DNA of 64,000 nt from Candidatus Zixiibacteriota bacterium (GCA_024277855.1 JAJRUJ010000082.1:3537-67536); one strand, 5' to 3'; shown: positions 4,361 to 22,558, numbered from the stretch's first letter. Notes: a model not told the origin generated them from the sequence alone. Numbers and translations: made by a program.

Positions 4361-4678
4361 TTACACGCAACCGGTCGGCTTGGCCAAACCGGCGACTTTA
4401 CACGCGCCTTTGGCCGGCCCCGACGGGAACAACTCGTAGACTTTCTTCAGCGGAAATCCGGTCTCTTTACACAGCTTGCGGATCATCGGAGCAATACCGA
4501 ATTTCAGATAGTATTCGCGAAGGTAGTTGACGAGTTTCCAGTGTTCTTCGGTCAGATCATCGACACCTTCAGTGGTGGCCAGTGCCTTGGCGATGTCTTC
4601 GTTCCACTGCTCGGGTTCCTGCATGAAGCCGTCTTCGTCGACCTCGATTTTAATGTCACCATGTTCAAAGATCGCCAT
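4361..4678 (-). CDS. dsrC: DsrC sulfur-carrier protein
   Basis: VDEDGF...W, and C-terminal LFPSGPAKGACKVAGLAKPTGCV with both conserved Cys. Confidence 0.98.
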   Translation of the reverse strand: MAIFEHGDIKIEVDEDGFMQEPEQWNEDIAKALATTEGVDDLTEEHWKLVNYLREYYLKFGIAPMIRKLCKETGFPLKKVYELFPSGPAKGACKVAGLAKPTGCV

Positions 4679-4750: not shown

Positions 4751-6472
4751 TTAGTTCACCGGCTGTGGTGGCACATATGTTGCCGGATCGTGCATCTCGA
4801 TATAGCCGCAAGGGCAGTTTTCCGCGCACTTGTCGCAACCCTTGCAAAATTCAAGTTTAAACTTATAACGCTGGCCCGGCAACAACGGTTTGATCACCGC
4901 CGAATCCTGACAATACGTCCAGCACTGTCCGCATTCAAAACAGGAACCGCAACTCATGCAGCGTTTCGCCTCGGCCAGCAACTGCTCCTCGGTCAAACCG
5001 GCGCTGACTTCCTTATCCAGCCCGGTAAGCCGCTCCTCGACCGGCAGGTTGGTCTTTTCGTTGCGCAACAGGTTCTCGTAATAGTTGAGCAGAATCTTGT
5101 CGTGTTTGATCACATGTTCCTTGTCCGGGTGGGACGGTTTTTCGCCGGTGAAATTCTCGTGGATCGTTTCGGCGGCACGACGGCCCTGGTACAGGGCAAT
5201 CACGACCAGTCCGAGTTCGAGATCGTCCCCGCCGGCATAGGTCTTGTCCGCGACCTGACCGCGGTCGTCGGTCTTGATCCAGTCGCGGCCTTCATGCAAA
5301 TGGTCCAGCCCCGTGAAATCGGGCTCCTGTGAAATCGCCGGGATAATTGTGGTCGCATCAATGGTAAATTCCGAGCCCTCGATCGGCACCGGCCGGCGGC
5401 GGCCGGATTCATCGGGTTCACCGAGTTCCATCCGCCGGCATTTCATCCCGACAGCGCGGTTACCCTCTTTGAGGATTTCCACCGGGGCGACCAGATATTC
5501 AATATTGACACCCTCTTCTTCGGCGCCAATGATGTCCTCCTCAATCGCGGGCATCTCATTGCGCGTGCGGCGATAGATTATCCACGAGTCGGCGCCGAGG
5601 CGTTTGGCCACGCGGGCGGCATCAAAAGCGGTGTCGCCGCCGCCGATGACGATGACTTTCTCGCCCAGCTCAACTGTCTCGCCGCGATTAACGGCATTGA
5701 GAAACTCGGTGCCGGTGTAGACATTTTCGGCGTCTTCACCGGGTACACGAAGGGCATACCCTTTATGCGCGCCGATCCCCACAAAGATTGCATCGTATTC
5801 TTTTTGTACATCTTCGTACGGGATGTCTTTGCCGACCGAGGTATTCGGTTTCAGTTCAACGCCGAGCTTGAGGATACGGTCGATTTCCTTGTCCAGGATA
5901 TCCTGCGGAAGTCGATAGTCGGGAATCCCATAGCGCAGCATTCCGCCGGGTTTGGGAAACGCCTCGAACATCGTCACCGGATACCCGCGCCGCGCGAGTT
6001 GATAGGCGCATGAAAGCCCTGCCGGCCCCGAACCGATCACGGCAATTTTTTGTTGCCGCCGTTCGTCACTGATTTTGGGCAGTTCGAGACCTTTTTCAAT
6101 AGCATAGTCACCGATGAACCGTTCGACATTATTGATGGCTACCGCCCCGTCTTTCTCCTTGCGATTACAATCGGATTCACAGGGATGCGGGCAAACCCGC
6201 CCGAGAACGGAAGGCAGCGGGTTGCGTTCGACAAAGAGTTTCCACGCCTCGACAAAGGCCTCGTCGTTCGACTTACCGTGTTTTTCGGCCAATTGAATAG
6301 TGGTCAGGATTTCGCGGACAACAGTCTCATTGGGGCACGCGGCATGGCAGGGCGCTGTTTTTTCGACATGGAACGGTCTGTTCGGGGACTGGTCGGTCGC
6401 TCCGCCCATCGCCGGACGTGAACGCAGCCTGCCCAGGCCGGCTTTTTTCTTTTTTTTCTTCTTGATCACCAT
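4751..6472 (-). CDS. dsrL: DsrL, NAD(P)H:Fe-S flavoprotein (DsrL-2-like, YRR motif)
   Basis: GltD-like core (CP.PCE..CNR, IGSGPAGL, GMLRYGIP.YRLP, IGGGDTA), IIYRRTR motif, and C-terminal ferredoxin (CMSCGSCFECGQC, CKGCDKCAENC). Lies inside the dsr cluster. Confidence 0.92.
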   Translation of the reverse strand: MVIKKKKKKKAGLGRLRSRPAMGGATDQSPNRPFHVEKTAPCHAACPNETVVREILTTIQLAEKHGKSNDEAFVEAWKLFVERNPLPSVLGRVCPHPCESDCNRKEKDGAVAINNVERFIGDYAIEKGLELPKISDERRQQKIAVIGSGPAGLSCAYQLARRGYPVTMFEAFPKPGGMLRYGIPDYRLPQDILDKEIDRILKLGVELKPNTSVGKDIPYEDVQKEYDAIFVGIGAHKGYALRVPGEDAENVYTGTEFLNAVNRGETVELGEKVIVIGGGDTAFDAARVAKRLGADSWIIYRRTRNEMPAIEEDIIGAEEEGVNIEYLVAPVEILKEGNRAVGMKCRRMELGEPDESGRRRPVPIEGSEFTIDATTIIPAISQEPDFTGLDHLHEGRDWIKTDDRGQVADKTYAGGDDLELGLVVIALYQGRRAAETIHENFTGEKPSHPDKEHVIKHDKILLNYYENLLRNEKTNLPVEERLTGLDKEVSAGLTEEQLLAEAKRCMSCGSCFECGQCWTYCQDSAVIKPLLPGQRYKFKLEFCKGCDKCAENCPCGYIEMHDPATYVPPQPVN

Positions 6473-6597
6473 GATGAACGTCCTTTTACCTGCTCAGCCC
6501 AGGCCCCATCCCGGCCAGCCTTGTCTAAAGGATAACTTTTTCTATTCCGGGGCCGCCTTGTACTCGTCACGAAACTCAGAGTCTCACCCGCGACATA

Positions 6598-8040
6598 TCA
6601 ACAATACGACGCGGTTGATATCGCCGTATTCCCCGATTCGGTACTCGATCCCCGTTCGGCGCAATAAACCCCGGCCAGCCGGACAAAGTTGGGTGCCCAT
6701 TCCGGTGTCCCCAGCGCATGAAGATGGAAATATGATGCCATCGTCCGCTGAACCACCAAGCCGTCGCGTCGATTAAACGACCCTCGCCCCAACTTCGCCG
6801 CACAGACGGTTGCTGAATTTTCCGCACCGTTCGCGATCCGCGTATAATGGAACTCGTGCGCGTTGATTGTTTTGCCGACAGGGAAATAAGGGTTTTCACG
6901 GTCAACGATCATCCGGCAATAGCCATGTCCCTGCGGCCGTTTTTCCAACACGAGTTCAACCGGGAAAACCCCGGCCATCGGGTAAACTATCTCGTCGACC
7001 TGCAACGACTTTGCCAGAAACACCAGTCCCCCACATTCGGCGTAGATCGGCATCCCCCGCTCAGCCGCAACGTGGACCGCGTCACGCAGTGCGGTATTAT
7101 CGGCCAACTGCCGGGCATGTGTTTCAGGAAAACCGCCGCCGATATAGAGTCCGTCAAGGTCGGCCGGGAGCGGATCATCATCCACCGCCGCAATCGGCAC
7201 CAGTTTCGCCCCGGCGTTATTGAGCGCTTCCAGATTCTCCGGATAATAAAACGTAAACGCCGCATCCCGGAAATATCCGATTCGCGCCACGGACGGGCGG
7301 TCGCTGGAGGCGTCAAACGACGGTTGTGCCCGATGCGGAAAAGGCCGCGAACCGGCCAATTCGATGATCCGGTTCACGTCGACATATTCATCGATGATTT
7401 CCGTCGCTCGATTTAACGCCTGCTCCGGATCGGGATGCTCCTCCGGCGTGACCAGTCCAAGATGCCGCCCCGGCAGAAGGGAGGGATCATCAAACCGCGG
7501 AATTGCCCCGACGACCGGCGGCCCGCCGGCCTGTTCCAACGATTCGGTGATTACCCGCTGGTGGCGTTTGCCGGCAACACCGTTGAGCACGACCCCGGCC
7601 ACGTTGACCCGGGGATCGAACGTGCAACAGCCCATGATCGCCGCCGCCGCGGTACGGGTGGCCTTGCGAACCTGATGAATCAGAATGATCGGAGCACCCA
7701 GCAAAGCGGCCAGTACGGCTGTCGAGTGAGTCCCCTGCGCATCCTGGCCGTCGTGCAACCCACGATTGCCCTCAATGACGGCAATGTCGGAGACAGCGCT
7801 ATTATTGACGAACGAACCGATAATCGTCGGCTCGTCCATCATGAATGTATCCAGGTTTCGCCCGGCCTGTCCGGCAACGCGTCCCAACCAGGCAGCATCG
7901 ATGAAGTCCGGGCCTTTCTTGAAGGCTGCGGTTTTCATCCCCCGCCGCGTCAGGACACCCAGCAACCCCAGGGACAGAATGGTCTTACCCGCGTCGCCGG
8001 ATGTGCCGGCGATCATGATGCGCGGGCATACCTCGCTCAT
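6598..8040 (-). CDS. dsrN: DsrN, siroheme amidase (cobyrinate a,c-diamide synthase family)
   Basis: GTSGDAGKT, FKKGPDFID, IEGNRGL, GGGFPE, YAECGG and HEFHY motifs. ATG at 8040 follows a GGAGG SD. Confidence 0.93.
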   Translation of the reverse strand: MSEVCPRIMIAGTSGDAGKTILSLGLLGVLTRRGMKTAAFKKGPDFIDAAWLGRVAGQAGRNLDTFMMDEPTIIGSFVNNSAVSDIAVIEGNRGLHDGQDAQGTHSTAVLAALLGAPIILIHQVRKATRTAAAAIMGCCTFDPRVNVAGVVLNGVAGKRHQRVITESLEQAGGPPVVGAIPRFDDPSLLPGRHLGLVTPEEHPDPEQALNRATEIIDEYVDVNRIIELAGSRPFPHRAQPSFDASSDRPSVARIGYFRDAAFTFYYPENLEALNNAGAKLVPIAAVDDDPLPADLDGLYIGGGFPETHARQLADNTALRDAVHVAAERGMPIYAECGGLVFLAKSLQVDEIVYPMAGVFPVELVLEKRPQGHGYCRMIVDRENPYFPVGKTINAHEFHYTRIANGAENSATVCAAKLGRGSFNRRDGLVVQRTMASYFHLHALGTPEWAPNFVRLAGVYCAERGSSTESGNTAISTASYC

Positions 8041-8081
8041 GCTGCCTCCAACCAAAAATAGATGGTCAGACAACGATCCAA

Positions 8082-8333
8082 TCAATCGTTGGCGGCGCCT
8101 TCCCGATGCGGTATCTCGATAAAACTACCGCCAAAGTACGTATAAACGCACCGCCCGGAATTCACCAGTTCCTTAATCGCCGCTTTGCAGGTTTTCTTAT
8201 CGGTCTTGCCTTCAAAAACCACCAACATGGCCTTGGTCAGGTCCATCGGTTTAAGTTTTTTCTGGCCCTGCGATTCGGCGACCATCTTGTACATCGCCTC
8301 GGCGATTTCTTCTACTGACATCATGTCAGCCAC
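8082..8333 (-). CDS. dsrD: DsrD, allosteric activator of DsrAB
   Basis: 83-aa winged-helix-like protein (KKLK...CK.AIKELVNSG...Y.YFGGSF) directly after dsrB. Confidence 0.88.
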   Translation of the reverse strand: MADMMSVEEIAEAMYKMVAESQGQKKLKPMDLTKAMLVVFEGKTDKKTCKAAIKELVNSGRCVYTYFGGSFIEIPHREGAAND

Positions 8334-8345
8334 AGTGATACCCCT

Positions 8346-9428
8346 TTAATAGGTCAGATGCACGGACCGCTTGAAGGTCAGTCCGGCATGCTTGAAATCG
8401 TCGATGTGTTGCTTTTCAAATTCAATGCCGGCCATCTTAAAGAATTTCGGCCAGCCGATCCGCTCGATCCATTCGCCCATCCGCTCGTATTTGCGGGCGT
8501 TGGCCGCCCACAACTCGACGAGATTCTTGACCGTATCGACAACTTCGGGCCAGCGCGGCGGATTGTTTGGAATAAACGGCACCGCGAGTTTCGAGAACAT
8601 CGGCTCGTGGCGTGCATTGGACACCTTGCCGCCAACCCAGATGGAGACGCCATCATTGAGCGGGTCGTTCAAAGGCATCGAGGGACAAACCGTGTAACAG
8701 TTTGCGCAGAACATACAGTTCTCTTCGAGGACCTCGACCGACGGGTTGCCGTCAACCGTTGTCGGCCGGATCGCCGCGGTCGGACAGGACGCCACCACCG
8801 AGGGAATTTCACACTCTTTGCGCAGCCGGTCATGGCTGATTTTCGGCGGACGGCGATGGATACCCAGAATGGCGATATCCGAGCAATGCACCGCGCCGCA
8901 CATATTCAGACAGCAGGCCAAAGCAATCCGCAGTTTCCCGGGAAGCGTCATCGACGTAAAGTAGCCGCACAGTTCATCCATCACCGACTTGACAATCCCG
9001 GAGGCGTCGGTCGCCGATGAGTGACAGTGGACCCAGCCCTGGGTATGAACGATGTTGGAGATGGAATTGCCTATCCCGCCGACCGGATGACCCAGTTTCT
9101 GCAAGTCGTCGATCAACGCATCGATCTTGCTGCTGTCGGTAAGCAAAAACTCGACATTGTTCCGACTGGTAAACCGCAGGTACCCGTCGCAATACTTGTC
9201 CGCAAGGTCGCAATATAAGCGAATCTTGTCGACACTGATCAGACGCGGTGAACCGGCGCGGACGGTAAACAATTTATCCCCGCCCTCAGCCACATGCACC
9301 ATGACACCGGGTTTCAGGACCTCGTGGTATTTCCACTTGCCGTAGTTGTCCTTAATTATCGGTGGCAGAAACTGCTCATAATGTGGGGGACCATAATCGG
9401 TCCGTCTTTTACTCATATCTACGGCCAT
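8346..9428 (-). CDS. dsrB: Dissimilatory sulfite reductase beta subunit
   Basis: [42 protein letters not shown], and [13 protein letters not shown] motifs. Confidence 0.99.
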
Positions 9429-9495
9429 TTTCTACCTCATTATCAAGAAGTACTTTTTCTCGCATTGTGGAGAGAACGACTGGCGTTGGCTCCGG

Positions 9496-10716
9496 TTATT
9501 CGTTCTCTTCTTCTTCTTCCTCATCCTCGTCGCCTTCTTCATAATAATCTTCATAGAAAACATACGGGTTTTCGCGGGGATGGGCCACCATCTCGGCGAC
9601 CGGCTCCAGTTCGATAGCTTCGAGGAAATTGCCCAGGCCGACACGCTGGATAAACTCGCCGATACGCTCGCGCGCCTTGCCTTCCTCGCCCCAGATATCC
9701 CAGATCCGCTCCACGATATCCTTGATCTCCTGGTAGGGCGGTTCCATCTTGATAAACGGAATCAAAACCGATGAAAGCAACGCGCCCTCGACGATCGGTG
9801 CTTTCGCGCCGAGCAGGATGCAGGCGCCGCGGTCTTTGCCCGGAGCCAGCGCCTTCGGCATGGCGTTGATGCAGTGCATACAGTGGCGGCAGGACGAGTT
9901 GTCGATATCAAGCTTGTTGCCGTCCCATTTCATACACTTGCCCGGGCAGTTGACAATGACATCATCGACAATGTCCAGACCGCCATCGGCATACTTCTTG
10001 ACCTCGTCGTGATCGACCTGGATCTCATCGCGCCAGGTACCGATGATCGACATGTCTGAACGCGCGATCGAGGCGACACAGTCGTTCGGACAACCGGAGA
10101 ATTTAAATTTAAACTTGTAGGGAAACGCCGGTCGATGCAACTCGTCCTGGAATGTCTGCGTAAAATCGTAACAGGCGCCCATTGTGTCATAACAGGCCCA
10201 TTCGCAACGAGCCATCCCGCAACAGCAACTCGGGGTCCGCACGTCCGAACCGGAACCGCCGATATCGAAATCGACCTTGGCCAATTCCTCGAAAACCGGC
10301 TCCAGTTGGTCGGTCGTCGTACCGAGGAACACAATGTCGCCGGTGGACCCGTGCATGTTGGTCAAACCGGATCCGCGTGGTTCCCAAATATCACATAGTT
10401 TGCGCAGCGCAGCGGACGTGTAAAACCAACCCGCGGGCTGGTTGATCCGCATGGTGTGAAAATGTGAAACACCGGGGAATTCTTTGGGTAACTGTGAATA
10501 GCGCCCGATTACGCCGCCACCATACCCCATTACACCGACGATACCGCCGTGCTTCCAAAACCCGATTTTCTCTGTGTAGGACTTTTCCAATTGCCCCAGC
10601 AGATCATTCGCCATCGGGCTTTTTTTGGCGGCCATTTTGATTTCCGTCACAAAACTCGGCCATGGACCCTTCTCGAGTTCATCGAGTTTTGGCGTCTTAT
10701 ACGTTGCCTCCGCCAT
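9496..10716 (-). CDS. dsrA: Dissimilatory sulfite reductase alpha subunit (reductive type)
   Basis: [35 protein letters not shown], siroheme-cluster motifs CCGMARC and [15 protein letters not shown]. Ends in an acidic tail. Confidence 0.99.
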
Positions 10717-15877: not shown

Positions 15878-17557
<1,680 letters not shown>

Positions 17558-17839: not shown

Positions 17840-18430
17840 TTAGTAGGATACTTTGGTGAAATTTTCGGCGGCAAAATCCCAGTTGAGCAGTTTGTCGATG
17901 ACCGCCGCGAGGTAATTTGGCCGGGCATTGCGGTAGTCGATGTAATAGGCGTGTTCCCAGACATCGACAGTCAGCAGGGCCGTCTGGTTGTACTTCAACG
18001 GCAAATCGGCATTGGCGGTCTTGGTTACTTTTAATTTGCCGTTGTCTGAAACCAGCCAGGCCCAGCCCGAGCCGAATTGGGTCGCCCCGGCGGCGGCCAA
18101 CTCCTCTTTGCATTTATCAAACGAACCAAAATCGCGGTTGATCGCCTCGGCCAGTGTACCGCTCGGCGCCCCGCCTCCGCCGGGTTTCAGGCAGTTCCAG
18201 TAGAAGGTGTGATTCCAGACCTGGGCGGCGTTGTTAAACAGTCCCCCTTCGGCCGTGACAATGATCTCCTCCAGCGGTTTGCCCGCTTCCGGCTTGCCCT
18301 CAGTCAATTTGTTAAGATTGGTAACGTAGGCGTTATGATGTTTCCCGTAGTGGAATTCGAGTGTCTCTTTGGAAATCGTCGGGGCCAGCGCATCGAGCGA
18401 ATATGGTAATGACGGCAATTCAAACGGCAT
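17840..18430 (-). CDS. sodB: Superoxide dismutase (Fe-type signature)
   Basis: HYGKHH, NNAAQVWNHTFYW, TQFGSGWAWL and DVWEHAYYIDY motifs. ATG at 18430 with GGAGG SD. Confidence 0.95.
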   Translation of the reverse strand: MPFELPSLPYSLDALAPTISKETLEFHYGKHHNAYVTNLNKLTEGKPEAGKPLEEIIVTAEGGLFNNAAQVWNHTFYWNCLKPGGGGAPSGTLAEAINRDFGSFDKCKEELAAAGATQFGSGWAWLVSDNGKLKVTKTANADLPLKYNQTALLTVDVWEHAYYIDYRNARPNYLAAVIDKLLNWDFAAENFTKVSY

Positions 18431-18598
18431 TGTTCCCTCCCTGAATTGATAATTTCCATAATCAATATTCATAAAGAAGGGACCGTGCTCAGGACTGTCA
18501 ACACCAATCGGCGATGAGATTGTTCTGGCCCTTGGCCGCGCCGATTCCCGATATTAATTGTCGGCAATTTGGCGATACGGCGAGGAACCGATGGCACC

Positions 18599-19876: not shown

Positions 19877-22468
19877 TTACTTGATCACGACGATTTTACC
19901 GACTTGATTGCCCCAGTCGGATTCGATCGAGTAGAGATAGATGCCCGACGTAATTGCCTGGGTGTTGCGCGTAATCAAATCCCAGGCCGTGTGGGAGGGG
20001 GTGTCCGAAAAGCGGCTCTCCGGGTGATGTAACTCGCGGATCAGGTCGCCGTCTAAAGAGAAGATTTTAATCGTCGCTTTTGGCGGCAGGTTGACAAAGT
20101 GAATCCGTCGCACGCGTTCCTTGAAACCCTCATGATTGGGGTCTTCATATCCCCGGCCGCGATAATCGGCGTCGATTTTATACGGATTGGTATAGACCGA
20201 AACGTTCAACCGATTTTCCTGAACATATTCCGGTGAATACGACGGATAGGCCAATTGCAGGTTTGATTGTGGTGGTGATTCGAGCGGGCCGAGATCGCCC
20301 GCGGCATATCCCTGGTCAAACGCGGTCACGGCAAAATAGTACGGCTGGCTCGGCAGTAAGTTGTCGATGACGCACTCGTAATGGCCGAACAACTGCCAGC
20401 TCTGGCTGTCGTCATCCCAGAGCGAATCGGTGCGGACATATTGAATCGGATTGTCGACGACTCGTCCGTATTCGACATACTCATTGCCCCGGTTGCCGCC
20501 ATGCGGCACGAAATAAAACTGCTCGCCGGAATCGTCGGTATACACCGAATTCCGGTCGGGATACTCTTCCGGGATAAAATCGGCGCCGAGCATGCTCTGC
20601 AGCTGTTCCAGCGTGAACGGTGGCTCGTTGCAAACCCAGGGCGAGGGCCGGGCGGTGGGGATAAAACGATACCGGTCATAGTTGACCACATCCCATGAGC
20701 AGACCAGGTTCAGCGAGTTGACATCGGAACCGATCCCACTGTAGACGCTGTAACCTTCGAAATCCCGCGTTTGAGAGAAGGGATCAAAAAACGGTTCGCA
20801 GACCTTCCCGCTCCAGGTAATCCGCACGGTATATGGCTCGGTAGATATTTTGATTTCGGGTGACGGCGGCGGCGGGGGCGTCCGGAGGTCGGGGATGCCA
20901 TCGCCAACATAATAAAACGAATCGCAGACTTCATAATTATCAAAACAGACATCATAACAAAATACTGAATCGCCATCCTCGAAACATTTTTCGAAGCATA
21001 CATTATCTTCCCGCCGGCAATTGACGCCGTATTTCCTCCCCGAGCAGCCGTCGCCATCGGTATCGATCCCTGGATTGTCGTAGACCCGTGAGGCCCATTG
21101 GAGATTCCTGGTCAAGTCTGAGAAATCGACATTCTTGAACCACTCGTTCGGGTTTTTGGAGAGGTTTTTTCGATTGCCGGCATCGCGATGAAAAAGTTCA
21201 CCCCCGGCAAAGGCAACGGTAAACGGTATCGTCTCGCCGGGCTCCAGTTCAAGCGGACCGATAGAATAGAGTATACATACGTCGTGTCCATCGGCAATAT
21301 TATATACTTCGCCCTCCTTTATATCCCGTATACCGAACGGCGGAATCCAGCCGCTTTCGGTCGAATCGTCGTTCGCCAAATATTGGTCGTAATCGATTTC
21401 ACGGTTCGAAAGATAACGGTACCGTTGCGCATCTCCATAAGGACCGCCCAATTTCCCGATAATAGATCGATCACCCGGCAGTTTTTGTGGACCCCAAAAA
21501 TACGACCACCAATTGAAGGAGTAATTCGGTACGGGGGTTGCTGAAAAGCACTGATCCTGGCCCAATCCGAGGACCCGAACTCCTATGACTGAGCGGACGC
21601 TCTGCTCCCAGAAACCCTGATGATAAAGATCGCCGTCGTTGTCGGCCCACCAGGCGGCCATGATTGTATCCGCAAAGTCACCGCCGGTAGAAACGGGCGC
21701 GGTACGCATGAAGCCGACAAGATTCTCCTTACCTGCCAGCGCCTTTGTGCTCATCCGGTTCAATACTCTGGGGTATATCCATAACCCAAGCCACAAGTTG
21801 GAGATAGGGATATTTCGTAAGTTAGTCAGGGAATACTGAACAATAATGACGTCTTCCAGGTAATCATAACTCCAAACATAAGAATGCTGCCTGATGCCGA
21901 TTCCGATTGGTTTATGCGGACGGAGGGTATAATAATCCGGCAAAACGTATTCCTGGTCCATTATTGTATCGGCATATTGGCAAATCAGTTCCTCGGTGGC
22001 AATTGCTGCAGGGTCGAAATGTGGGCTATTCGGTTCGTTGCTCAGCTCCAGGAAATCCATATCTTCTGCTCCCGGGAGCCACTCCCATTGAGTGACCAGG
22101 GTATCCGCGGTGGAGCCAGATCCGAAGACTGCCCCCGCCCAAAGTTCACCCCAGTTTAGATAGTCGCAATTACTCCCGGCGGGATATTGCATGCCGGGAG
22201 CGGGGAGCCCGGTCTCGGGGTCAACTAATGAACTATAAACATTGCCAAATTCACCCCAATTGGTCATCGTCATCTGGAAGTTTCCGGCACGATGAATGCG
22301 ATATTGGGTATTGGGAGCGTCGCTGACCCCATTCGTCTGAGCCAGCTTGATAAACCGTCGATTGGATGAATCGGGGATGCTATTCTGCCCGGTGGCAGAT
22401 ACTGCAAGACAGGATATTAGAGATAATGCGATTACGACACGCAAACCGCCGAAGCCAAACCACCCCAT
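19877..22468 (-). CDS. Large secreted protein of unknown function with T9SS-like C-terminal domain
   Basis: Signal peptide after a GGGGAG SD, Pro-run linker, FnIII-like segment (YYFAVTAFD), and C-terminus VYTNPY...IHFVNLP...IKIFSLDGDLIREL...WDL...SGIYLY...GKIVVIK. Confidence 0.7.
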   Translation of the reverse strand: MGWFGFGGLRVVIALSLISCLAVSATGQNSIPDSSNRRFIKLAQTNGVSDAPNTQYRIHRAGNFQMTMTNWGEFGNVYSSLVDPETGLPAPGMQYPAGSNCDYLNWGELWAGAVFGSGSTADTLVTQWEWLPGAEDMDFLELSNEPNSPHFDPAAIATEELICQYADTIMDQEYVLPDYYTLRPHKPIGIGIRQHSYVWSYDYLEDVIIVQYSLTNLRNIPISNLWLGLWIYPRVLNRMSTKALAGKENLVGFMRTAPVSTGGDFADTIMAAWWADNDGDLYHQGFWEQSVRSVIGVRVLGLGQDQCFSATPVPNYSFNWWSYFWGPQKLPGDRSIIGKLGGPYGDAQRYRYLSNREIDYDQYLANDDSTESGWIPPFGIRDIKEGEVYNIADGHDVCILYSIGPLELEPGETIPFTVAFAGGELFHRDAGNRKNLSKNPNEWFKNVDFSDLTRNLQWASRVYDNPGIDTDGDGCSGRKYGVNCRREDNVCFEKCFEDGDSVFCYDVCFDNYEVCDSFYYVGDGIPDLRTPPPPPSPEIKISTEPYTVRITWSGKVCEPFFDPFSQTRDFEGYSVYSGIGSDVNSLNLVCSWDVVNYDRYRFIPTARPSPWVCNEPPFTLEQLQSMLGADFIPEEYPDRNSVYTDDSGEQFYFVPHGGNRGNEYVEYGRVVDNPIQYVRTDSLWDDDSQSWQLFGHYECVIDNLLPSQPYYFAVTAFDQGYAAGDLGPLESPPQSNLQLAYPSYSPEYVQENRLNVSVYTNPYKIDADYRGRGYEDPNHEGFKERVRRIHFVNLPPKATIKIFSLDGDLIRELHHPESRFSDTPSHTAWDLITRNTQAITSGIYLYSIESDWGNQVGKIVVIK

Positions 22469-22558
22469 CACACTCCCCCTAAAAGCCATTGCTATCTTTT
22501 GCTAAACATATGATCTTAAGTAATAATATCATCCGCCGCAACCTGGAGTTTTCATTCT

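Follow-up and report, generated by a model that had tools for sequence, protein, structure and literature searches.

A 64-kb stretch of DNA from a Zixibacteria-like genome (the window) carries a dsr gene cluster in which two proteins end in low-complexity tails of opposite charge: DsrA, the alpha subunit of dissimilatory sulfite reductase, at its C-terminus, and the iron-sulfur flavoprotein DsrL, here of type 2 (DsrL-2), at its N-terminus. Comparison of 68 operons shows that the charges of the two tails co-evolve; among all loci sampled, the basic tail is confined to DsrL-2 encoded beside reductive-type dsrAB. An earlier sequence-only reading of this DNA had proposed that the tails could tether DsrL to DsrAB; we lean, a little beyond an even chance, towards the view that they attract each other and would form a flexible (“fuzzy”) electrostatic tether between NADPH-oxidising DsrL-2 and the DsrA2B2 reductase. 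The two genes and the segments in question are as follows.

9496-10716, minus strand: dsrA, dissimilatory sulfite reductase alpha, 406 amino acids (aa); TIGR02064 equivalog match over residues 11-398 (590.5 bits, cutoff 392.85), with PF01077 and PF03460.
9499-9555, minus strand: acidic C-terminal tail of DsrA, residues 388-406, net charge -14, directly after the conserved NPYVF arm motif.
4751-6472, minus strand: dsrL type 2, 573 aa, an NfnB/GltD-like iron-sulfur flavoprotein with a C-terminal ferredoxin domain; NF009410, 590 bits.
6413-6472, minus strand: basic N-terminus of DsrL, residues 1-20, MVIKKKKKKKAGLGRLRSRP, net charge +10, with a motif conserved in homologs.
6481-6486, minus strand: AAAGGA, a Shine-Dalgarno-like element 8 nucleotides upstream of the dsrL ATG, read off the sequence.

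Both runs described in the sequence-only reading are present on the minus strand where that reading had placed them. Fourteen of the last 18 residues of DsrA are aspartate or glutamate, and DsrL, which begins MVIKKKKKKKAGLGRLRSR, has seven consecutive lysines, K4-K10, at 6443-6463 (codons AAG AAG AAA AAA AAG AAA AAA). Given the composition of the DsrA core, the chance of at least 14 acidic residues in 18 is 2e-9, and 2e-6 runs of seven lysines are expected by chance in DsrL; among the window's 152 open reading frames (ORFs) of 120 aa or more, these two tails are the only places with at least five consecutive lysines or at least seven consecutive acidic residues, so chance is excluded. The remainders of both proteins are acidic, with a net charge of -23 for the DsrL body and -12 for the DsrA core. 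As far as sequence can tell, the dsrL start codon at 6472 is sound, because AAAGGA lies at a suitable place upstream and nearly all of the best 120 homologs begin at the same position with the same motif; this conserved upstream motif and the Shine-Dalgarno-like element before Met1 also rule out Met22 as the real start.

The gene calls of the sequence-only reading proved correct for both proteins. DsrA is about 60% identical across the aligned region to the crystallised DsrA chains 3mm5_A and 2v4j_A, its arm motif NPYVF (residues 383-387) aligns with the NPF/NPY of 3mm5 and 2v4j, and dsrB lies directly downstream. DsrL contains PF14691 (residues 38-128), PF07992 (142-430) and PF14697 (510-560), and its AlphaFold2 model is confident throughout the body. 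The gene is complete, with the domain order and the operon placement, ~3 kb downstream of dsrA, by which Loeffler et al. recognise dsrL, and its neighbours are dsrN and dsrC rather than genes for pyruvate or ketoisovalerate:ferredoxin oxidoreductases. According to Loeffler et al. (2020, PMC7596348), DsrL types are set by the YRR motif, insertions and linker length, and the YRR motif marks the NADP(H)-specific type 2, for which NADP(H)-specific activity was measured with the Desulfurella amilsii enzyme. The protein studied here has this motif in its NAD(P)-binding domain as Y300-R301-R302, invariant in our alignments A1 and A3.

Both tails are conserved in kind and variable in length, each with a short motif beside the folded body and a charge run of variable length at the free end. 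Nearly all of the best 120 DsrA homologs (78–91% identity) end in YEEY(F/Y)EE followed by a run of aspartate and glutamate of variable length, and nearly all of the best 120 DsrL homologs (61–78% identity) start M-A-K-x-V-K-K-x-K-K-x-L-G-G-L-R, with lysine runs of 1–8; the closest homologs of both proteins that carry source names are mostly from Zixibacteria/GN15 metagenome-assembled genomes (MAGs). Both tails are predicted to be disordered: AlphaFold2 gives predicted local distance difference test (pLDDT) scores below 50 for DsrL residues 1-27 (6392-6472), against a whole-protein mean of 83, and likewise for DsrA residues 388-406 in a model that is otherwise mostly confident.

Codon usage indicates that the lysines of the DsrL tail are selected at the amino-acid level, because 63% of the N-terminal lysine codons are AAG and lysine far exceeds arginine only in the tail (Lys:Arg 347:63 in the first 20 residues compared to 1696:2065 in the rest of the protein, in 68 orthologs). 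AAA codons are mildly enriched in the N-terminus (39% versus 26%, p = 5e-4). The lysine run of dsrL is encoded by AAGAAGAAAAAAAAGAAAAAA (A8-G-A6, codons 4-10), a slippage-prone tract, and its length in relatives ranges from 1 to ~10; slippage out of frame in this tract would switch dsrL off. Tail length probably changes by slippage in the runs of AAR and GAR codons, with the lengths held matched by selection.

To compare the tails between organisms, loci were drawn from a DsrL-alignment scan of species-representative genomes (80 loci) and a DsrB-alignment scan of metagenomes (80 more), from which, with the window, we used 68 operons in which the end of DsrA and the start of a DsrL-2 encoded downstream are both present. 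Those that carry source names come from Ignavibacteria, Zixibacteria, Acidobacteriota, Gemmatimonadota, Actinomycetota, Planctomycetes and others. The net charge of DsrL residues 1-20 was set against the net negative charge of the DsrA residues past NPYxF, with DsrL N-termini placed by the BLAST-projected position of Cys42 and a narrow start window. Clustering at 50% identity merges DsrA into a few full-length clusters and fragments, and gave example C-termini only.

The positive charge of the DsrL N-terminus and the negative charge of the DsrA tail correlate with a Pearson r of 0.85 (p = 1e-19; Spearman 0.85), or with r = 0.82 when simpler start-codon/Cys-motif picks replace the Cys42-projected starts. 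The relationship holds when shared ancestry is accounted for: phylogenetic independent contrasts on six trees (neighbour-joining and unweighted pair group method with arithmetic mean, for the core of DsrA, of DsrL or of the two together) give r = 0.69–0.74 (p = 1e-10 to 6e-13), a value reached in 0 of 5000 permutations (p <= 0.0002), and the charge changes co-occur repeatedly inside clades. Similarly, the correlation is found within two of the three DsrL N-terminal motif groups: the 28 operons of the MAK type give rho = 0.76 and the 21 of the MGLL type rho = 0.80. In the third group, the 19 operons of the Acidobacteria-like xLFK type, there is little variation (rho 0.27), and the clearest exception (locus L029) has both tails expanded, KAKKKPKLK in DsrL with FREEEEEEEEDSEA in DsrA. 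Taking the longest K/R run against the longest D/E run gives rho = 0.82, and other charge definitions agree. When considering possible confounders, the partial r is 0.85 controlling for GC content, 0.81 controlling for the D+E and K+R content of long flanking ORFs, and 0.73 controlling for charge per residue in the DsrA core, DsrB and the DsrL body, while the charge of the DsrD-like protein encoded between dsrB and dsrN, the DsrB C-terminus and the homopolymer runs of flanking genes show no correlation with either tail. The co-occurrence that the sequence-only reading had anticipated is thus borne out, as a co-variation of charge.

The tails are also specific in where they occur. Every sampled DsrL-2 adjoining reductive-type dsrAB has a basic N-terminus (net +2 to +11). 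No such N-terminus was found in the DsrL-1 beside oxidative rDsrAB (L016b, L021, L026, L027, L036), in the one rDsrAB-linked DsrL-2 sampled, that of Desulforhopalus (L024), or in DsrL-like paralogs lacking dsr genes in their 10-kb flanks (L030-32, L038-41). For the DsrA side, a profile search yielded 116 DsrA of other reductive clades, whose source-named members include Desulfobacca, Thermodesulfatator and Thermodesulfobacteriota; the net tail charge lies between -4 and +3, and a polyacidic tail is found in none of the 116. Four of the five operons inspected from this set read dsrAB-D(-N)(-C), with no dsrL within ~10 kb, and the fifth (L163) has a dsrL-2 with modest charges on both sides (DsrA tail YQDTVEETA, -3; DsrL N-terminus MGLLKPVTKKPPLR, +4). 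DsrL is, according to PMC7596348, not encoded in classical deltaproteobacterial sulfate reducers, and the crystallised DsrA of DsrL-less sulfate reducers lack a polyacidic tail over the aligned stretch. The expectation that acidic DsrA tails vanish where dsrL is missing therefore fits what was found in these sets.

The crystallised DsrAB of DsrL-less sulfate reducers (Archaeoglobus fulgidus 3mm5, D. vulgaris 2v4j, D. norvegicum 2xsj and D. gigas 3or1) have the same fold and the same crossing NPY/NPF arm, but continue after the motif with residues of mixed charge rather than the disordered polyacidic tail seen here. In Desulfovibrio-type DsrA these residues read KEEEV(P/E)GGWxRD..YRxRHxR, with a net charge of about 0, and are said to form a helix that packs against the partner subunits.

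A tether of the kind proposed calls for segments that are disordered, opposite in charge and correlated in evolution, and the tails are predicted to be disordered, carry +10 and -14, and co-vary (r = 0.85; contrasts 0.69–0.74). DsrL and DsrAB are known from the literature to exchange electrons. In all solved DsrAB structures the C-terminal arm of DsrA crosses to the other alpha-beta heterodimer, where the Asn/Tyr of NPY inserts into its DsrB (bioRxiv 10.1101/2021.12.28.474277), so the acidic tail would leave the enzyme surface beside the DsrB of the partner heterodimer. The lysine tail in turn lies ~30 residues before Cys42, the first cysteine of the N-terminal two-cluster domain of DsrL, whose equivalent in NfnB is a ligand of the distal cluster (PMC7596348). 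With the acidic tail beside DsrB and the lysine tail near the cluster domain, pairing of the two would concentrate the iron-sulfur domains of DsrL locally around DsrAB, and it would overcome the repulsion between two proteins that are otherwise acidic (-23 and -12).

Several observations weigh against direct tail-to-tail pairing, or limit how far it can be extended. The charge of the DsrL N-terminus is also linked, more weakly, to how acidic the DsrL body, DsrB and DsrC are (rho -0.5 to -0.7) and to the D+E content of flanking genes (about +0.5), so some charge compensation beyond the tail pair is likely, and such general compensation, rather than pairing of the tails, may account for part of the signal seen in these sequences. 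The co-variation is likewise compatible with charge balancing in a complex in which the tails make no direct contact. Operons of the Ignavibacteria type are somewhat discordant, with DsrA tails of -9 to -11 and DsrL N-termini of only +5. Moreover, in 19 of the 68 operons (the Acidobacteria-like ones) the DsrA tail is neutral and the DsrL motif weakly basic (KEVKKPVIK). The tails can thus not be the sole or an obligatory docking element, and the pair is dispensable for the partnership of DsrAB with DsrL-2. The sampled DsrL-1 members, the type to which Allochromatium vinosum DsrL belongs, have no such tails, and A. vinosum DsrL-1 is cited as shown to mediate electron transfer with rDsrAB (PMC8794893). 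Finally, the absence of dsrL from whole genomes was judged only from 10-kb contexts and the literature. For the tether proposed by the sequence-only reading, this means that the comparative test came out in its favour (co-variation, contrasts and controls), and that it does not extend to DsrL-2 organisms in general, given the neutral DsrA tails in about a quarter of the operons. Because those operons still keep the weakly basic motif in DsrL, the tails seem to supplement a more basic docking mode in an adjustable way.

Among other explanations, the one that survives best takes general charge compensation as the whole account: the lysine tail would offset the acidic surfaces of DsrL, DsrAB or DsrC, by folding back or by meeting any acidic patch, with no specific contact between tails. 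The rank correlations of the DsrL N-terminus with the net charge of the DsrL body (-0.68, on a body of net -23), DsrB (-0.57) and DsrC (-0.52), and with flanking D+E (+0.52), are as it would predict, as are the partial correlations with DsrB (r = -0.42) and the DsrL body (-0.36) that remain after the DsrA tail is removed, and the weakly basic N-terminus that is kept where the DsrA tail is neutral. However, nothing else predicts DsrL N-terminal charge nearly as well as the DsrA tail (standardised beta 0.66, compared to -0.20 and -0.18), with DsrB and the DsrL body contributing less, the tail-to-tail partial r is still 0.73–0.81 after removing body and flanking charges, and the DsrA tail is uncorrelated with DsrB or DsrL body charge once the DsrL N-terminus is removed. 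We therefore regard this explanation as unlikely, though it has to be taken seriously.

The remaining explanations, even when taken jointly, are unlikely. In the first, the tails would have independent functions that both respond to one property of the environment or lineage, for example salinity or ionic strength, with an acidic solubility “bristle” on DsrAB and a lysine tail that binds membrane or nucleic acid. Elsewhere, poly-lysine segments are known to attach to nucleic acids and anionic lipids, and both tail charges correlate weakly with GC content and the acidity of flanking genes. This idea is improbable, since the partial correlations stay as they are when GC (0.85) or flanking composition (0.81) is controlled for, the basic tail occurs only in DsrL-2 beside reductive dsrAB and not in paralogs or DsrL-1, and joint changes recur within clades; the window, with only two long charge runs, shows no proteome-wide habit either.

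In the second, the DsrA tail would serve another basic partner from the operon, a lysine-rich DsrD-like protein, and the lysine run of DsrL would mainly be an A-rich 5′ aid to translation initiation. DsrD is lysine-rich and in A. fulgidus binds DsrAB (PMC8794893), and the mild enrichment of AAA codons noted above points the same way. But the net charge of the DsrD-like protein does not follow that of the DsrA tail (rho -0.11, p = 0.4) and its gene is not nearby in several operons, which leads us to reject it as the partner of the acidic tail; a translation ramp as the cause of the lysine run is largely rejected as well, as the majority of its codons are AAG and a ramp would not predict co-variation with the C-terminus of another protein. 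We consider the combined proposal very doubtful. Least probable of all is neutral expansion by replication slippage without function, which would suit the repetitive AAR and GAR codons and the widely varying run lengths but not the retention of the tails in hundreds of sequences across phyla beside the conserved motifs YEEY(F/Y)EE and KKxKKxLGGLR, the matching of charge between two proteins after phylogenetic correction, or the lack of correlation with homopolymer runs in flanking genes.

The electrostatic tether could extend beyond a 1:1 pairing. DsrL of A. vinosum is reported as a homodimer (PMC7596348), and DsrA2B2 would present two acidic tails to the two basic tails of such a dimer, making a multivalent pair. 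It is a speculative and rather improbable extension that this would produce salt-tunable higher-order assemblies or coacervate-like clusters, with slippage tuning tail length to ionic conditions; if true, it would amount to a bacterial respiratory “metabolon” built on matched poly-Lys/poly-Glu tails, which concentrates the electron path from NADPH to sulfite.

Tethers made of oppositely charged disordered tails are known from the kinesin K-loop with the tubulin E-hook and from histone H1 with prothymosin-alpha, and acidic tips are found elsewhere, for example at the C-terminus of SSB. By analogy, these likewise set poly-Lys against poly-Glu/Asp in disordered segments of tunable length, for which one would expect sensitivity to salt and faster encounter rather than a fixed geometry. 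They belong to the eukaryotic cytoskeleton or chromatin, or to hubs of DNA metabolism, whereas the proteins considered here are a bacterial respiratory reductase and its flavoprotein donor, and we know of no such tether described between partners of that kind. A second parallel is the assimilatory NADPH-sulfite reductase CysJ/CysI, whose hemoprotein anchors the reductase partner by a terminal extension. There too an NADPH-oxidising flavoprotein is held on a siroheme sulfite reductase through a terminal segment, though CysJ and CysI are of other protein families and use a structured contact of hydrophobic type without charge runs, and nothing indicates homology to the DsrA and DsrL tails.

The DsrL-2/reductive DsrAB pair itself has been described by Loeffler et al. 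(PMC7596348), and their description matches the proteins found here: the YRR motif, an N-terminal two-cluster domain, FAD/NAD(P) domains, a linker, a C-terminal ferredoxin domain and a location with reductive dsrAB. The passages of that paper that were searched do not mention a lysine-rich N-terminus, an acidic DsrA tail or a docking surface, whereas both tails are present here. Full-text literature searches combining DsrL with lysine-rich or acidic tails, lysine, or cryo-electron microscopy returned nothing relevant, including no paper joining DsrL and cryo-electron microscopy, which agrees with the claim in the sequence-only reading that no docking determinant of DsrL has been defined. The tail pair and its co-variation are, with no prior description found, new.

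The tails sit within a cluster ordered qmoAB-dsrA-B-(D-like)-N-L-C-dsrMK, in which all relevant genes are on the minus strand. Upstream of dsrA are qmoB- and qmoA-like genes, and downstream of dsrC follow a gene with an RsbRD_N domain, dsrM and dsrK. The further members are as follows.

8346-9428, minus strand: dsrB, beta subunit, 360 aa; TIGR02066, 521.8 bits against a cutoff of 341.5.
8082-8333, minus strand: small gene in the dsrD position, 83 aa; weak winged-helix matches only, found at the same position in most related loci.
6598-8085, minus strand: dsrN-like amidase of the CobB/CbiA family, 495 aa; NF002204, 415.7 bits, with PF07685 and PF01656.
4361-4678, minus strand: dsrC, 105 aa, ending ...PTGCV; TIGR03342, 117.9 bits, with PF04358.

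The 83-aa gene fits DsrD in position and size but not in sequence, and is thus named DsrD-like by position only: PF08679 gives no match even at E = 10, and BLASTP finds no similarity to the PF08679 DsrD of locus L165 (E = 1.5). It is kept after dsrB across the DsrL-2-linked clade, with YTYFGGS in place of the YWSSGSTT of Desulfobacterota DsrD, and may be a DsrD that has diverged strongly or else a small winged-helix protein of another kind. The gene with the RsbRD_N domain (PF14361; 3549-4112, minus strand) lies between dsrC and dsrMK and is also present in the distantly related, dsrL-containing operon L163 (17589-18140), which suggests that its product is a conserved, uncharacterised member of these dsr clusters. 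Elsewhere in the window, an 870-aa ORF at 19877-22489 (minus strand), near genes for a GroEL-like protein (15908-17557) and an Fe/Mn superoxide dismutase (17840-18472), has no Pfam match at E <= 1e-5.

Some of the loci collected for the comparison show arrangements of their own. The DsrL-1 of L021, L026, L027 and L036 are extended at the N-terminus by a different conserved stretch, ...(V/T)xNGxSWKCPxYxQ(R/K)LPPC, which adds a cysteine ahead of the first cluster motif, and the rDsrA tails of the same four loci share FEELAPxR..GE...VWNRE, both being lineage-specific termini. A Thermoleophilia MAG (L016; JACWAD010000058.1, 1716-10517) holds two sulfite reductase sets in tandem on one contig. The first is a reductive-type dsrA-B-D-L2 with 64% DsrA identity and a basic DsrL N-terminus; the second, directly after it, is a dsrA-B-L (49% and 46% identity) with a long DsrA tail of mixed charge and a DsrL N-terminus that is not basic, as in the oxidative type. 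In L014 (13361-14831), L057 (7735-9157) and L072 (3829-5947), a second DsrL/NfnB-like paralog, more distant in sequence, lies a few kb from the first. In the Acidobacteria-like L147 (11036-12281), where the DsrA tail is the neutral FETAKGGAK, the dsrL match before dsrC spans only query residues 19-257, and this dsrL may be truncated or decayed.

The matched tails provide a clean natural case of quantitative co-evolution between two low-complexity disordered segments on separate proteins, and a sequence marker for metagenomes, as in the sampled operons a strongly basic DsrL-2 can be predicted from an acidic tail on DsrA. They are also a concrete and cheap experimental handle on the DsrAB–DsrL complex, and bear on how DsrL docks to DsrAB and on NADPH-driven sulfite reduction in the many uncultured phyla that have reductive dsrAB together with dsrL-2.

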